A DNA stretch of 64,000 nucleotides, taken from assembly GCA_002372615.1 (NCBI GenBank), contig DFHG01000008.1, forward strand, positions 36,590 to 100,589, read 5' to 3'. This document shows positions 22,367-38,963 of the stretch, piece after piece. Position 1 is the first letter of the stretch. The number at the start of each line of letters is the position of its first letter. Position numbers and translations under genes: made by a program. Below the pieces are notes generated by a model, which saw nothing but the letters and a program-made list of their open reading frames with translations, was not told where the DNA came from and made no database searches. The stretch is from Mycoplasmataceae bacterium UBA3729 (lineage in GTDB: Bacteria > Bacillota_I > Bacilli_A > Mycoplasmatales > Mycoplasmoidaceae).

Positions 22367-22395
22367 TTGATTATTCATTTTTATATAATTTGTTA

Positions 22396-22776
22396 CTATT
22401 TAAGGTTATTGACTTTGACTATATTATCAATCATATGGTTTACACTAGTAAATCCATCTTTAACAATCCTGGTTAATTTATTTAAATTATTAGTCAATAT
22501 ATCCAAATTATTAGACAAAATATTTACTTTATTATATACAATGCTTAAATTATTAGTTAAATTATCTACTTTATTAGAAAGTTTATCTAAAGTCATTTTG
22601 TTTTAGTTCCTGGTTTTCTTCCACCATCACCACTTGGTCCATCTTTAAACTCGACTCTTTGTAAATCTAAATTTTATCAATAAATTTTTATCGATGTTGG
22701 TGTTGATTAATTTATATTTACCAGCATTAGTAACTTTACTTATCTTCACACATCATATATTATTGATTTTTATCAT
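22396..22776 (-). pseudogene. Fragmented small coiled-coil protein gene (three frames)
   Basis: Three pieces in different frames. ATG 22776 gives MIKINNIWCVKISKVTNAGKYKLINT..FTKSRV*. A second frame gives FKDGPSGDGGRKPGTKTK. A third is track ORF 22396..22596, a heptad-rich segment LSNKVDNLTNNLSIVYNKVNILSNNLDILTNNLNKL. Confidence 0.4.
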
Positions 22777-22837: not shown

Positions 22838-22911
22838 TGGAGCGGGCGATCGGAATTGAACCGACGTCAATAGCTTGGAAGGCTATGGTTCTGCCACTGA
22901 ACTACGCCCGC
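22838..22911 (-). tRNA. tRNA-Gly (anticodon UCC), CCA encoded
   Basis: GCGGGCGTAGTTCAGTGGCAGAACCATAGCCTTCCAAGCTAT..GGTTCAATTCCGATCGCCCGCTCCA. The cloverleaf folds by eye. Confidence 0.9.
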
Positions 22912-22929
22912 AGCCATTATAAATGATTA

Positions 22930-23015
22930 TGGTGCTGGAAGAGGGACTTGAACCCTCACGATATTGCTATCACAGGATTTTAAGTCCTGTGCGTCTACCA
23001 TTCCGCCACTCCAGC
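22930..23015 (-). tRNA. tRNA-Leu (anticodon UAA), long variable arm, CCA encoded
   Basis: GCTGGAGTGGCGGAATGGTAGACGCACAGGACTTAAAATCCTGT...GGTTCAAGTCCCTCTTCCAGCACCA. Confidence 0.9.
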
Positions 23016-23018
23016 AAG

Positions 23019-23093
23019 TGGTGTCCCACCGGAGACTCGAACTCCGGACCCCTTCATTAAAAGTGAAATGCTCTACCACTGAGCTAGTGGGAC
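23019..23093 (-). tRNA. tRNA-Lys (anticodon UUU), CCA encoded
   Basis: GTCCCACTAGCTCAGTGGTAGAGCATTTCACTTTTAATGAAGGGGTCCGGAGTTCGAGTCTCCGGTGGGACACCA. Confidence 0.9.
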
Positions 23094-23097
23094 AATT

Positions 23098-23172
23098 TGG
23101 CTGGGTAGGTTGGATTCGAACCAACGCATGTCAGAATCAAAATCTGATGCCTTACCGCTTGGCTACAACCCA
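23098..23172 (-). tRNA. tRNA-Gln (anticodon UUG), CCA encoded
   Basis: TGGGTTGTAGCCAAGCGGTAAGGCATCAGATTTTGATTCTGACATGCGTTGGTTCGAATCCAACCTACCCAGCCA. Confidence 0.9.
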
Positions 23173-23175
23173 AGA

Positions 23176-23260
23176 TGGTGGACAGAAGTGGATTCGAACC
23201 ACTGAAACCGGGGGTGGCTGATTTACAGTCAGCTGCGTTTGGCCGCTTCGCTATCTGTCC
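23176..23260 (-). tRNA. tRNA-Tyr (anticodon GUA), long variable arm, CCA encoded
   Basis: GGACAGATAGCGAAGCGGCCAAACGCAGCTGACTGTAAATCAGCC...GGTTCGAATCCACTTCTGTCCACCA. A TATAAT box (plus-strand 23271-23276) lies about 10 nt upstream of the 5' end. Confidence 0.9.
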
Positions 23261-23852: not shown

Positions 23853-24998
23853 TTAAGACCTCTTGCAAATTACATTATCTTTGTATCATGATAAAAAATG
23901 ATCAATTTTAGAAAGTGTCTTTTGTGGAATATTTTTAATATTATCATCCACAATATCAGGTTCAAGCGGATCAATAAATTTTAAACATCCGCTTTTAGGA
24001 TCTCAATAAATCTTGTGTTTGTCAAATAAAGTATGAGTGTCGGGTTTTAATGGTAATATATTATCTTCATCTTTTATTTCCAATAATATTTCTTTGTCAA
24101 AATTATTTTTAATACATTCTTTTTTTATTTCACATACAGGTTTGATGTGTGCAAATTCTACTAAATCAATATAAACATCATCAAATTTTTTTTCTCAAAA
24201 ATTCTCAGTGAAATTTTTTCTTTTTTTATTAAGCTCACTATACAAATCATTACGATATTTTCTCACTATATTACAAATTTCTTCATGTTTTATTCTTTGT
24301 GGGCAATATTTTTTTTGAATCTTTTTAATTTTTGTTTTTTGCTCTTGTGGTGTTAATCGATGATTGAAATAATCAAAATCATCTTTAAGATTATGATCAT
24401 GATTTAATCATTCATAAAAATCTTTATATTGTTTAATGTTATTTTTTCTAGAAAAATAATCCTTTCACAATAATTTGTATTCATTTGAATCTAATTCATC
24501 CTTTTTAAATTTTAGTCGCAATGATTGGAATAAAAAACCTATATTTTCTTTTTGATTTCTGTTTTTCAAATAAAAACTTGATTTAGTTGGATTACCTTGG
24601 CCAGAAGGATTTGAACCAGTAATAATGTAATCAATATTCCCTAATGTCTGACCTATTCATTCACTTTTAAATAATGAATTTATTTTCTTTATTTGTTCAT
24701 TTTTTAGATTAATGTATTGCTTACATCTACCATTTATATTTGGAGTGTTGGTTAACCCAATGTTTTCTAATACTTTATTTCTAAATTTAAATCTAAAAGC
24801 ATTACTTTTATTAAAATGTGCTTCTGTTGTGAATTGAGTTATAAATAATTTTTTTCATTGAATTTTGTAGTCATGAATTCAATTATATTCATCAACTAAT
24901 AATATTACTTGGCAACAACTTTCTTGCTTTTTTCCAGTTTTAAAAAACAATGTAATTGGAACAAATGAATATTTAGCAATTCTTTCAACATAATGCAT
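23853..24998 (-). CDS. Type II restriction endonuclease candidate with a C-terminal HNH (beta-beta-alpha-Me) nuclease motif
   Basis: 381-codon ORF, continuous with TGA=Trp (translated codon by codon). The C-terminus carries VEFAHIKPV....DNILPLKPDTHTLFDKHKIYW. The ATG overlaps the methyltransferase stop (TAATG at 24996-25000). Confidence 0.65.
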
Positions 24999-26006
24999 TA
25001 TATAGAAACCTCATTTAACATAACATTTAGAGATGGTTTATTTGTCCATTCAGTTAATTTAAAATTTATTGATTTATAATGTGTTCTTTTTGATTTGTTA
25101 TTTTTCAAAAATTTTGTTAATATATCTAAAATTAATTCTGGTGGTATATGGCTACGCTCCATAGCATTACGTTTGTATTTTATTCGCACTTTAATTTGTT
25201 TTGACATTAATTTTGACAATTTTTGTTCTGTATTTAGCCGTTTTATCTCATCTAATTTATTGTTTTTGCATGCTCCTGATAAAATTAAATAGTAATTGTT
25301 ACTATCAATTTTTTTTATTGACATATAACCTTTTTTAGCTTTTTTTAAATTTAATTTAATATTTGATAAAAAGCATGTTGGTTTTTTTGAAAAATTTTCA
25401 TTATATGCAGAATAATGAGCAATGTTTTTAATACCATTAGTAAAACCTAAATTGTATTTAATATATTTCCAGATAAGTGAAGATGCTGGATTTTCAATGT
25501 AATAATTTTTTGGTTTAAAATAACATAAAATTTTAATTACATTTTGAATACACCTTTCACCTAGTTCACCAACATATTTTGGAACTTGTTTTCTTCCTAA
25601 TGGATATGAATTTCCTGAAAATCCATTTCATTTGACATCTTCTGGTCAAGTTTCAACTTTTTTTGTGTCATGATTTCAAAAATGGTGTGGGTTTCCTGAA
25701 AAATAATTGCCATGTTCATCTTTTATTGTTGAAATTGATTGCATTGCAGAACTAAAAGATTGACATAAACTACTTGATACTATAATATCTGGAATTTGAA
25801 TTTCATTTTTTTTAATTTTTACATTCAATTTTTTAATAACATCATTAGTTGATAGATCAAAAACAATGTTATTAAATCCATTTGATTTTTTAATAATGTC
25901 TAATGTATATACTTTAAAATATTTTTTTATTCGAGATTTTTTTAGAGCTAAGCGTAGTGAATTACACCCCCCCAAACATATCTCAAATAATAAGTCTTTT
26001 TACCAT
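24998..26006 (-). pseudogene. DNA (cytosine-5)-methyltransferase, out of frame at a G7 tract (candidate phase-OFF allele)
   Basis: ATG 26006 gives MVKRLIIWDMFGG, then G7, then TAA. With G6 or G9 the frame runs on for about 335 codons. Motifs: DMFGG(G)C (I), SSSLCQSFSSA (IV), YYIENP (VI), SHIPPEL (X). The span is 1009 nt, which is 3n+1. Confidence 0.7.
25967..25973 (-). repeat. Homopolymeric G7 (plus-strand C7) tract inside methyltransferase motif I
   Basis: Plus strand reads ..attacaCCCCCCCaaacat... It is the longest G/C homopolymer I noticed in this AT-rich window. Confidence 0.9.
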
Positions 26007-27058: not shown

Positions 27059-28315
27059 TTATTGGGATCTTAATTTTTCTAATAAACTATTAAATGTTTG
27101 ATCAGGATTAATTTTGTAAGTTTCAACTAAATTTGTTATTGGATTAGTAAATTCAATAAAATATGAAGTTAAAAATTGACCATAGTTAATATAACCATCA
27201 TCTTGACCATATAATGGGTCATTATATACTTGATGATGAATGTAATTTAAATGTACACGAATTTGATGCGTCCTACCTGTAGATAATTCGCATTCAATAT
27301 ATGCAGCATTTTTGTAATGTTCTAAAACTTTAATTTTAGTTAAAGCTTCTAAAGCATTAGGTTCATTACTTACAATCATTTTTAATTTATCATCTTTACT
27401 TCTAGTTATAGGTGCATTAATAACAATGTTATCATCTTTTAAATCATTATGAACAATACATAAATATTTACGAATAATTTTTTTATCAATAATTTGTTGC
27501 TTTAATGCATTTGCGACATTTTGATTCTTAGCAATAATCATTAAACCATTTGTATTTTTATCTAAACGATGAATAATACCCAGTCTTTCTTTGTCAATAA
27601 AGTCATTATTAGGATATTTAATTTTTAATCAGTCTACTAATGTGTTATCTTGTTGATATTTATCATGATGAACTAATAAATTTTTAGGTTTATTGATAAT
27701 AAGAATATTATCATCTTCATGAATTATTTTTATTTGTTCAAATATTTTGCTAGTCATATTTATTTCATTTAATGAAGTTTTTTTTGTAAAAATAATACTA
27801 AATATCAATACAAAAATTGCTAATCCAATCAATCCAATTAAGATAAAAACATCTGGCATATTAAATACTGCTGATTTTCCAAAGAAACAAAAATAATCTA
27901 ATACAGCATTTTTTTGTGGATCACAACTAGTTGGATTTTTATAACACATACGATCAATAAAATTAAATAATGCACCACCAATAGCAACAGAATTAAATGC
28001 TAGATAACATCCTTTTTGTAAAAAAATGAATACACCTATTAAGACTAAAATTAAAATAAACTGTAAAGCATAAATAAACCCAACTTTATTATCTAATCGT
28101 GAAAATGCTATACCTGTATTTAATTCAATCTTTATTACAATAAAAGCTGATGAATTATTGTTTGCATTATAGTTCATAGCCCAGTTATGAACTGGTCATG
28201 AAATAATAACAACAATAATAACACCAATAAAAAAATATATTAATCTTTTAATGAAAAGAGATTTAGTAAAATTTTCATTTAAAAAAGTTTTAATTGTACT
28301 ATGCTTGTTGTTCAT
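27059..28315 (-). CDS. Fusion protein: lipoprotein signal peptidase II (LspA) N-terminal domain plus RluA/RluD-family pseudouridine synthase C-terminal domain
   Basis: LspA motifs: NTGIAFS, IGGALFNFIDR, VLDYF, FNMPD. The sequence then reads IIHEDDNILIINKPKNLLVH, HRLDKNTNGLMIIAKN and RTHQIRVH with no stop between. One 1257-nt frame, with TGA at 27629-27631 read as Trp. Confidence 0.8.
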
Positions 28316-35439: not shown

Positions 35440-36123
35440 ATGAAAATAAAATTTGAAGCAAAAACAAGACCATGAAAAATTGCAATATGTGTAATTTTAA
35501 TTTTTATCATATTTTTAATACTTTGGATTTTATTTTGTGAAATTGACATTTACAACCTTGATTGAATAGTTCCTCATAATGGAATTTTATGAAAAGGAAA
35601 GATTACAGCAATAAATTATGATTGATTAATAACAAAATATCCAAACGCTATTGACCAATTAGAAATAAATAAATCAATTGAAATTTACAATAAAGGATCA
35701 TTAATATTTAATTGAAATTTATTATGGATATTCATTTTACCTATTGTTTTTTCAATATTATTAACATTAAGTTTACGAATATTAAAACTAGCAAATATTG
35801 ATATGTTACCATTTATTTTTAGTATTAGCATTTGTTTATTTGTTTTATTTGTCATATCCAATTTTATCCCATATTGAGAAAATAATCAATTGTGACGATG
35901 AATGGTAAGAATATTAATAAGTGTTTCATCATTTTTTATATTATTCTTTCCCACTAATTTTATTGTTGGTAAAATTATGTTCAAATCTAAAAATCACCAA
36001 AATTATTTGAATAATTTAAAAGCAGAAAAAAATGCAATAAAATTAATCAATGAAGATTCAAATAATGCATTCGATCAATATAAAAAATCAAAAGATAAAG
36101 AAATTACTTATATAGATACTTAA
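35440..36123 (+). CDS. Multi-pass membrane protein, unknown function
   Basis: 227 aa with several hydrophobic helices. Frame shared by ATG 35440 and track ORF 35902..36123. Confidence 0.55.
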
Positions 36124-38963
36124 TTATTTTTAAAGATCTCATATAAATATTTTGCTGTATATGAGACATCTTTATATTTAATAATTTGCTCAGGTGAACC
36201 TGTGGCAATAACTTTACCACCATTATTCCCCCCGTCTGGTCCTAAATCAATTATGTAATCAGCACATTTTATAAAATCTAAATTATGTTCAATGACAATT
36301 AATGTTGAACCATTATCAACAATTCGATTTAAAACATTTAATAATTTAGCAATATCATCTACATGTAAACCAGTAGTTGGTTCGTCAAGAACAAGAATTG
36401 TATCTTTTGTACTATTTTTTTGTAAGAATTTTGCTAATTTAATTCTTTGTGCTTCTCCGCCAGATAAATTTGTAGAACTTGTACCTAGATTTAAATAACC
36501 TAATCCTACATCCTGTAATAAAGTTATTTTATGATGAATGGAAGGAATATTTTTAAAGAAATCCACTGCTTCATTTACTGACATTTGCAATACATCATAA
36601 ATGGATTTTCCTTTATATTTGACACTTAGTGTCTCATCATTATATTTTTTTCCATTACATTCATCACATTTAACATATACAGCTGGAAGAAATTGCATGT
36701 CAATCCTAATTACTCCATCTCCTTGACATTTTTCGCATCTTCCACCAGGAACATTGAAGGAGAATCTTCCTTTTTTATATCCTTTGGCACGTGCATCTTG
36801 TGTTGAAGCAAATAATTCTCTAATTTCATCAAAAACACCAATATAAGTGGCTGGATTACTTCTTGGAGTTTTTCCTATTGGATCTTGGTTAACAATAATT
36901 AATTTATCAACATTTGATATTCCAGAAATACTTTTTATTTTTCCGGTTTCAACAAATGGATTAAATAAATGCTTTTGTAAATTAGCTAATAGTGTATCTA
37001 ATACTAAAGTTGATTTTCCACTACCACTTACACCAGTTACACAAATGAATTTACCTAGTGGAAAAGTCACATCAATATTTTTTAAATTATTAGCACTCGC
37101 CCCCTTTATAGTAATGGTTTTACCATTACCACTTCTTCGTGCTTTAGGAATAGGGATAAATTTTTTATGTGAAAGATATTGACCTGTAATAGAATTTTTA
37201 CAATTAATGATATCTTGAATTGATCCACATCCAACTAATTTACCACCATTTTCACCAGCTTCTGGACCAATATCAATTAAATAATCAGCAGCACGCATTG
37301 TTTCTTCATCATGTTCCACAACAATAATTGTATTTCCTAAATCCCGCATCTTTTTTAATGCATCGATTAATCTACTATTATCTTTTTGATGTAAACCAAT
37401 TGATGGCTCATCTAAAACATAAATTATTCCAGTTAATACAGAACCAATTTGTGTAGCTAATCTAATTCTTTGTGATTCTCCACCAGAAAGTGTAGATGCT
37501 GAACGTGATAATGTTATGTAATCTAACCCAACATTTTTTAAAAATAATAAACGGTTAATTATTTCACTAATAATTAAATTAGCTATTGATTTTTGATATT
37601 CTGTTAATTTTAAATCTAAAAAATAATCAAGTAATGTATTGATTGGCATGTCTGTTAATTCAATGATATTCTTATTATTTATTTTGATTGATAAAGCTTC
37701 TTTGGATAATCTTTTACCATTGCATGCTTTACATTTCTTTTCTACCATGAATTTACCATAAAATGACCTTAATAATTCACTCTTTGTATCAAAATATAAA
37801 CGTTTTACATGATTAAGTATACCTTCATAATAATTACTACCTTGTCTTTTGATTCCACTATCTGATGTAATATTAAATTTAATTGGTTCATCTGAACCAT
37901 AAAAAATATAGTTTAATTGTTTTCTTGATAATTCTTTAATTGGTTTATCTAATGGAATTTTGTAATGTTTCAACATTGATTCAAATTGCTGTCATTCAAT
38001 ATTTTTAGTACCGACCGTATTTTTATAATATTCAATTCCGCCTTCAGTAATAGATAATTCTGGGTTTGGTACCATTTTATTTTCATCAGGTTCAAATGTT
38101 ACACCTAATCCTTTACATACTGGGCAAGCTCCAATTGGTGAATTAAATGAAAATAATCTTGGTTCCATTTCAGGTATAGAAAAACCACAAATATCACATG
38201 AATGAGTTTCAGAAAATATATGTTCTTGATCATTAATAACAACAATGATTTTTTTATTACCATATTTTAATCCAGTTTCAATAGAATCATTAATCCGTGA
38301 TTTTGTTTCATTATCATGGTGTCCAATAATACGGTCGATAACAATATCTATATTATGAAATTTATTCTTTTCTAGATTAATTTCTTCATCCAAAGAATAA
38401 ATTTTATCATCAATTCTTACACGCAAGAAACCATTCTTTCTTAATTTATCTAATTCTTTAGCAAATGTTCCTTTTTGTTTTCTTACATAAACTGATAAAA
38501 TTTGAATTCTATCATTCTCTTTAAATAAAGTATCAACTTGATTAGAAATTTGTTGGATTGTTAATGTTTTAATCTTACCATGTCCATTAGGACAAAATGG
38601 TTCTCCAATTCGTGCAAATAAAATTCGTAAGAAATCATAAATTTCAGTTACTGTACCAACAGTTGAACGAGGATTTTTGGAAGTTGATTTTTGACTAATA
38701 GCAATTGTTGGAGACATTCCCTCTATTGCATCAACATTTGGTTTTTTATTACCACCTAAAAATTGACGTGAATATGTTGATAAAGATTCAAGATAACGTC
38801 TTTGCCCCTCAGCAAAAATAGTATCGAATGCTAAAGAAGATTTTCCACTACCACTAACTCCTGTAATAACAACTAATTTATTTTTAGGAATAGAAACATT
38901 AATATTTTTAAGATTATTTTCTTTAGCACCAATAACTTTAATTATTTTTGTTGAATCTGACAT
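36120..38963 (-). CDS. uvrA: Excinuclease ABC subunit A
   Basis: Two ABC cassettes (GVSGSGKSS twice, LSGGE.QR twice) and zinc modules. The fragments 37992..38963 and 36120..37976 join (2844 nt). Confidence 0.95.

Follow-up and report, generated by a model that had tools for sequence, protein, structure and literature searches.

A length-variable G tract in motif I of a probable cytosine-5 methyltransferase gene as a candidate on/off switch heading a Type II-style restriction-modification operon in uncultured Mycoplasmoidaceae

Methyltransferases switched by simple sequence repeats are well established, in mycoplasmas too, and include cytosine-5 (C5) enzymes of Mycoplasma agalactiae controlled by poly(G). 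In that species, a poly(G) tract of 6-11 G switches the ORF of an M.SssI-like CpG C5 methyltransferase (MAG4250/MAG4260), fragment-length analysis revealed active variation of poly(G) length in all tested genes, and CG methylation was confined to the strain whose gene was intact (Dordet-Frisoni et al. 2022, PMC9465063). By locus-tag order in the literature on M. agalactiae PG2, the pseudogene halves MAG4250/MAG4260 precede MAG4270. In Mycoplasma mycoides subsp. capri, the Type III enzyme M.MmyCI is switched by an (AG)n repeat, (AG)12 (PMC3498834), and phasevarions are well documented for both Type III and Type I systems (PMC6789123). What is new in the locus described here is that the enzyme is of another family, that the tract sits within the loop of motif I, that a separate nuclease is intact, and that a sister lineage has a second type of repeat.

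The window, i.e. the whole stretch of DNA analyzed (positions 1-64000), is mollicute DNA of 24.7% G+C, and was read using genetic code 4 (TGA = Trp). The closest named relative of its ParE protein is that of Candidatus Malacoplasma girerdii (73% identity). The window contains a methyltransferase gene and a nuclease gene, a pair flanked by rimI and greA, with the following features.

26004-26006, minus strand: ATG start of the methyltransferase gene; the same ATG yields the full 336-aa protein in L014-L016, which have G9
25967-25973, minus strand: G7 homopolymer (C7 on the plus strand), the hypermutable tract, coding for the glycines of the motif I loop
25962-25964, minus strand: TAA met from the ATG frame at G7 (OFF state, 14 codons)
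24998-25969, minus strand: methyltransferase body ORF of 323 codons and a stop, shifted to the +1 frame with respect to the ATG
25973-25975, minus strand: TTG taken as a start by gene callers in the G7 frame (product MGGCNS..., as in P0026 and P0031)
25009-25012, minus strand: GAGG, Shine-Dalgarno-like, 10 nt upstream of the nuclease ATG and within the 3' end of the methyltransferase gene
23853-24998, minus strand: HNH nuclease of 381 aa, MAG4270 family, putative cognate restriction endonuclease

The minus strand reads ATG GTA AAA AGA CTT ATT ATT TGA GAT ATG TTT GGG GGG GTG TAA, with ten codons between the ATG (26006-26004) and the G7 run, which is followed by GTG and TAA. From this ATG, translation stops after 14 codons with G7 and after 19 codons with G8; G6 and G9 give ORFs of 335 and 336 aa, respectively, ending at 24998 (code 4). 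The span from ATG to stop is 1009 nt, i.e. 3n+1. The original prediction, made from the letters of the window, had read the frames in this way and had expected about 335 codons upon re-framing, both of which agree with the sequence. It had also called the run conspicuous, and indeed no other G/C homopolymer in the 64 kb reaches the length of this G7, the runner-up being a single C6. By composition, ∼0.05 runs of at least seven are expected, and such runs were present in 12 of 300 shuffles of the window. Among the 862 glycine codons of the window genes, 5.2% are GGG. The C6 run (36228-36233, plus strand) corresponds to an ordinary-looking in-frame GGG GGG in uvrA (36120-38963, minus strand).

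Downstream of the tract, the body ORF bears a motif IV (LCQSFS), a motif VI (IENP), and a C-terminal RSxIPxEL, so that together with FGGG (the motif I loop after strand β1) the key motifs of C5 methyltransferases are present. The original prediction of a C5 methyltransferase stands in part. The repaired protein has no Pfam match and scores 20.8 bits against TIGR00675 (dcm), below the cut-off of 100.65. Together with its relatives, which number 872 cluster representatives at E ≤ 1e-3, it makes up a family of short proteins. Some members are labelled C5 methyltransferases by their source records, and 8 of 20 sampled, more distant members match PF00145 at E < 0.01. When compared with the PDB, the family profile matches C5 methyltransferases only, aligning SPLCQSFS with PPCQSWS of M.HaeIII and YIENP with LENV of the Dcm-like enzyme 3lx6, and the residues Cys81, Glu171, Asn172, and Pro173 are invariant or nearly so in the family alignment. 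An AlphaFold (AF2) model of P0002, an in-frame orthologue that is 77% identical, was obtained with a pLDDT of 84.7 and a pTM of 0.83. In this confident model, the Gly-Gly-Gly loop (residues 12-14) lies between strand β1 (residues 5-10) and the first helix (residues 17-23), which places the tract in motif I as had been proposed. A fold search with the model returned C5 DNA methyltransferases as all of its best 16 PDB matches, with a probability of 1.00, at a TM-score of only ∼0.3 and an rmsd of 7-9 Å. The closest of these are M.HaeIII and M.HhaI (PF00145), which are the best fold matches (E 4e-5 to 5e-4, probability 1.00) and share the order of the motif I glycine loop, the catalytic Cys in xCQxFS, and ENx. 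They differ in that identity is 13-16% at a TM-score of ∼0.3, that LCQ replaces PCQ and ENP replaces ENV here, and that there is an insert of ∼55 residues between motifs IV and VI. These features suggest a divergent C5-methyltransferase-like enzyme, for which the C5 assignment is probable on motif and model evidence. A CpG methyltransferase of the M.SssI/M.MpeI type was considered and rejected, since there is no sequence match to M.SssI or M.MpeI, and M.MpeI (4dkj) ranks 18th in the fold search (E 3.5e-3). Statistics of 4-mer palindromes in the window gave no candidate target site. Only CTAG and TATA are clearly under-represented, which provides no clue to a restriction-modification target. 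Across the window, the observed/expected ratio is 0.44 for CpG and 1.39 for GpC.

The nuclease matches NF045952 (MAG4270 family putative restriction endonuclease, E 1.2e-40) and PF13391 (HNH_2, E 1e-6). A homologue search returned unnamed metagenomic proteins only, a sequence comparison with the PDB found no relative, and PADLOC has no model for either the methyltransferase or the nuclease. The stop codon of the methyltransferase gene and the ATG of the nuclease gene overlap as TAATG, and the pairing of the two genes is kept in L001, L003, L009, L013, and L014, the orthologous loci lying in differing neighborhoods. At the position equivalent to the window's GAGG, L009 has AGGAGGTGA, and we infer that GAGG acts as the Shine-Dalgarno sequence of the nuclease. 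When folded as RNA, the junction between the two genes was not more stable than shuffles (z = +1.0), which gives no support for occlusion of this site. Scans for promoters (25 promoter-like sites versus 28 expected) and for terminators (none found) were uninformative in such AT-rich DNA, and Rfam and a tandem-repeat finder returned nothing relevant near the methyltransferase locus. As judged from gene content and arrangement, the methyltransferase and the HNH nuclease appear to form a Type II-style restriction-modification operon with separate genes. Because the operon is of this type and its HNH nuclease is intact, switching of restriction-modification is a simpler reading than a phasevarion, and the phasevarion-type switch of the original prediction gains no support from any observation made here. 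Elsewhere in the window, a single ORF (27059-28315, minus strand) joins a signal peptidase II (Peptidase_A8) to a pseudouridine synthase (PseudoU_synth_2), a 418-aa fusion also found in the syntenic L001 and L014. A 21-nt periodic repeat of 4.8 copies (22367-22606) encodes a heptad-like, Leu/Asn-rich ORF of 66 aa (minus strand) beside a tRNA cluster (22838-23260).

Comparison of the tract across strains had been suggested as a check of the original prediction. We read the tract in the DNA of related contigs and in the N termini of gene calls in 90% clusters, and found the following alleles.

Window: G7, OFF
L001, window's species, 98.2% nt identity, syntenic: G8, OFF
L014, L015, and L016, window's species, three samples: G9, ON, full 336-aa product MVKRLIIWDMFGGGCNS...
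L002, orthologue with 77% aa identity: G9, ON
L013, species cluster of L002: G8, OFF
L019, species cluster of L002: G7, OFF
L003, orthologue with 73% aa identity: G8, OFF
L004, L005, and L006, orthologue with 55% aa identity: G9, ON
L020-L025, species cluster of L004: G8, OFF
L009, orthologue with 53% aa identity: G8, OFF

The window's own species (L001 and L014-L016, with 97.6-98.2% nt identity to the window and the same gene order) thus contains G7, G8, and G9. The N termini of gene calls match these lengths, reading MGGCNS with G7, MRYVWGGCNS with G8, and ...WDMFGGGCNS with G9. In three species, the same 322/323-residue body occurs with different tracts, i.e. P0035 (G8) and P0028 (G9), P0036 (G8) and P0037 (G9), and P0046 (G8) and P0047 (G9). 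Since identical bodies carry unequal tracts, the tract changes faster than amino acid substitutions build up. Of the lengths seen, G9 (GGG GGG GGG) alone is ON, which puts the window's G7 two steps from ON; of the two ON lengths originally predicted, G9 is thus found in relatives, and G6 is absent, as is G10, from the ∼25 alleles examined. The loop is encoded by a pure G run in five lineages, despite the rarity of GGG among glycine codons, and two lineages without the tract encode the identical Gly-Gly-Gly by mixed codons (GGC GGA GGA and GGT GGT GGA). A degenerate DNA pattern run over genome contigs found only three species representatives, and the representatives with the methyltransferase gene are rumen and goat-reticulum MAGs and one Mycoplasmataceae MAG only. 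A protein-pattern scan of the genome contigs confirmed no relative, probably because Trp is encoded by TGA here. A pattern spanning the tract had no match in metagenome contigs. Exact look-ups of the product of the upstream rimI and of P0026 returned nothing.

The tract is therefore polymorphic, some alleles being in frame and others not while the gene is otherwise unchanged, as expected from a length-variable on/off switch. By these standard comparative signatures, the interpretation of the tract as a real slippage-type switch, i.e. a contingency locus, is well supported. High-frequency reversible switching within a clone would be in keeping with the polymorphism between metagenome assemblies. 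The alleles of relatives also bear on whether the true sequence might be in frame, the G7 being a homopolymer error of sequencing or assembly. Homopolymers are error-prone on some platforms and the window is a metagenome-type assembly, but the G7-frame gene call is found again in P0030 (JGI) and in P0031, which differs by two residues and comes from a different strain, and G7 was read from the DNA of another species too (L019). Moreover, every length class repeats in several independent samples, with the G8 of cluster 4 present on at least 10 contigs. We therefore give a miscall only a very slim chance. Both cases that would have spoken against a switch, an invariant G7 and an in-frame G6 misassembled, are ruled out by these G7, G8, and G9 alleles.

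Apart from the tract, the methyltransferase gene is intact and under purifying selection. Its body extends over 323-326 codons without interruption in all lineages, and its dN/dS is 0.09-0.38 overall and 0.09-0.21 among closer lineages. The nuclease ORF is intact everywhere, OFF lineages included, and evolves faster than the methyltransferase (dN/dS of 0.24-0.45). Between the window and L001, aa identity is 93% for the nuclease and 98% for the methyltransferase, with dN/dS of 0.39-0.45 and 0.10, respectively. Faster evolution of the nuclease may reflect relaxed constraint, its methyltransferase partner being two steps from ON in this lineage. These values are relevant to the possibility that the gene is dead, i.e. 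that the G7 frameshift is a fixed inactivation in a decaying restriction-modification system. A 323-codon body free of any other stop or frameshift in every lineage, and a dN/dS of 0.10 even for a pair in which both alleles are OFF (window and L001), are not what such decay would leave, and neither are in-frame G9 alleles in the window's own species, tract lengths that vary on identical bodies in three species, and a nuclease ORF that is intact throughout. What can be said for decay is that the allele in the window is frameshifted and would need two steps to reach the sole ON length seen, that about half or more of the alleles are out of frame, and that the nuclease in the window has diverged more than the methyltransferase. 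On balance, fixed inactivation is largely refuted, and we consider it very improbable. One G8 allele of the window's species (P0034, a single Logan contig) has a further frame change in an A-run of the body at 'SIKKI' (window ∼25305-25315, minus strand), and this A-run may either be another place of slippage or have been misassembled.

In a sister lineage, orthologues that lack the poly(G), with motif I encoded by GGT GGT GGA, hold an (AT)n tract at 'PYIYIYID', between motifs I and IV. Three such tracts were read.

L010, 1457-1475: (AT)n tract of 19 nt, in frame
L017, 6336-6356 of the reverse complement, minus strand: (AT)n tract of 21 nt, out of frame
L018, 106-128: (AT)n tract of 23 nt, out of frame

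Split gene calls (P0065, P0067, P0008, and P0009) agree with frame changes at (AT)n, and the family pattern found two loci of the (AT)n type in metagenome contigs. As read from these lengths, (AT)n would be another repeat switch in this methyltransferase family, independent of poly(G).

We consider it likely that the G tract in the window is a contingency locus operating by slippage, with G9 as ON and the window's G7 as OFF, and that it heads a Type II operon. Slipped-strand mispairing during replication would shift the tract by single bases. Of the lengths seen, only G9 joins the ATG at 26006 to the body of 323 codons in one frame, and it encodes the Gly-Gly-Gly loop after strand β1. G7 and G8 would both cut translation within the first 19 codons, so that the window would show the OFF phase, with ON two slippage steps away. 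As the methyltransferase gene is the first of a two-gene operon, the tract would toggle DNA modification, predicted from the motifs to be 5mC, and an OFF tract would probably also lower nuclease synthesis through lost translational coupling. Such coupling at the overlap would be the simplest route for one tract to silence both genes, and the single feature that points to it is the overlap of stop and start codons. The biological role might be a trade-off between defense and DNA uptake.

Several observations count against parts of this scheme. The methyltransferase falls short of the Pfam and NCBIfam cut-offs, and its fold matches have TM-scores of only ∼0.3. When the methyltransferase is OFF, an intact nuclease beside it is expected to be self-toxic. 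The Shine-Dalgarno-like GAGG of the nuclease is its own and is not sequestered by RNA structure. The OFF frames hold TTG starts near the tract, from which N-terminally truncated products are possible; the product initiated at TTG in the G7 frame would be devoid of strand β1 and hence probably inactive.

The survival of OFF alleles beside an intact nuclease with its own Shine-Dalgarno-like motif would also be accounted for if recoding kept the chromosome protected, i.e. if OFF-length alleles still made some full-length enzyme and the length of the DNA tuned rather than switched expression. The G run does permit, directly from its sequence, the re-pairing of tRNA-Gly in the +1 frame, but we found no stimulatory element, the codon in the A site past the slip site is GTG, which is neither a stop nor a rare codon, and the variation in DNA length is seen directly and makes recoding unnecessary to explain the data. 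This idea is purely inferential and we lend it little credence as an account of the tract. Its proposed route would be a +1 ribosomal slip on GGG-G (tRNA-Gly moving from G4-6 to G5-7, followed by TGT AAT) or transcriptional slippage. Slippage to +1 on the G run, at a low level, might alternatively provide protection in the OFF state.

Returning to the contingency locus, a broader version of it is that one homopolymer in motif I switches the whole Type II operon, and that the family has been recruited to repeat control repeatedly, through poly(G) in five lineages and (AT)n in another. We put this forward tentatively, as it seems to us rather doubtful. If true, gut and rumen mollicutes could drop and regain a defense barrier without self-restriction, and there would be strong selection for switchable restriction-modification in uncultured Mycoplasmoidaceae. 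The locus also raises the question of how cells cope with OFF alleles of the methyltransferase when the nuclease just downstream is intact and encoded by a gene of its own. The identical alleles that differ only in tract length indicate that public metagenome assemblies suffice to show the hypermutability of a tract.

The locus adds a methyltransferase-nuclease pair, not described before and originating from uncultured gut/rumen Mycoplasmoidaceae, to the restriction-modification systems switched by repeats. Control of a regulon is the defining property of phasevarions; the locus presented here is known from sequence alone. Like the Type III mod genes of Haemophilus, Neisseria, and Helicobacter and like M.MmyCI, it has a simple repeat in the methyltransferase ORF, which would set ON or OFF by frameshift, and its methyltransferase gene lies upstream of that of its nuclease partner. 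However, those systems have N6-adenine Mod enzymes, whereas a C5-like enzyme is found here with a separate Type II-style HNH nuclease. Since a Type III Res needs Mod to act, OFF is harmless in Type III systems.

The closest parallel is M. agalactiae. In both cases, a mollicute has a C5-type enzyme whose ORF is complete or not depending on a coding G homopolymer (6-11 there, 7-9 here), and in both the truncated form is found in many strains. In addition, the gene in M. agalactiae adjoins, as suggested by locus-tag order, MAG4270, the founder of the nuclease family found here. The two differ in enzyme family, as shown above by sequence and fold comparisons with M.SssI and M.MpeI. The tract of M. 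agalactiae is mid-gene, upstream of the catalytic domain, whereas it occupies codons 12-14, in the glycine loop of motif I, in the locus described here. The M. agalactiae enzyme has been treated as an orphan, whereas the methyltransferase gene here overlaps an intact nuclease gene. Finally, variation was found to be active there by fragment-length analysis, whereas here comparison of alleles points to it. By analogy between the two systems, poly(G)-controlled C5 methyltransferases may generally be paired with HNH proteins of the MAG4270 family, even though the methyltransferase families differ.
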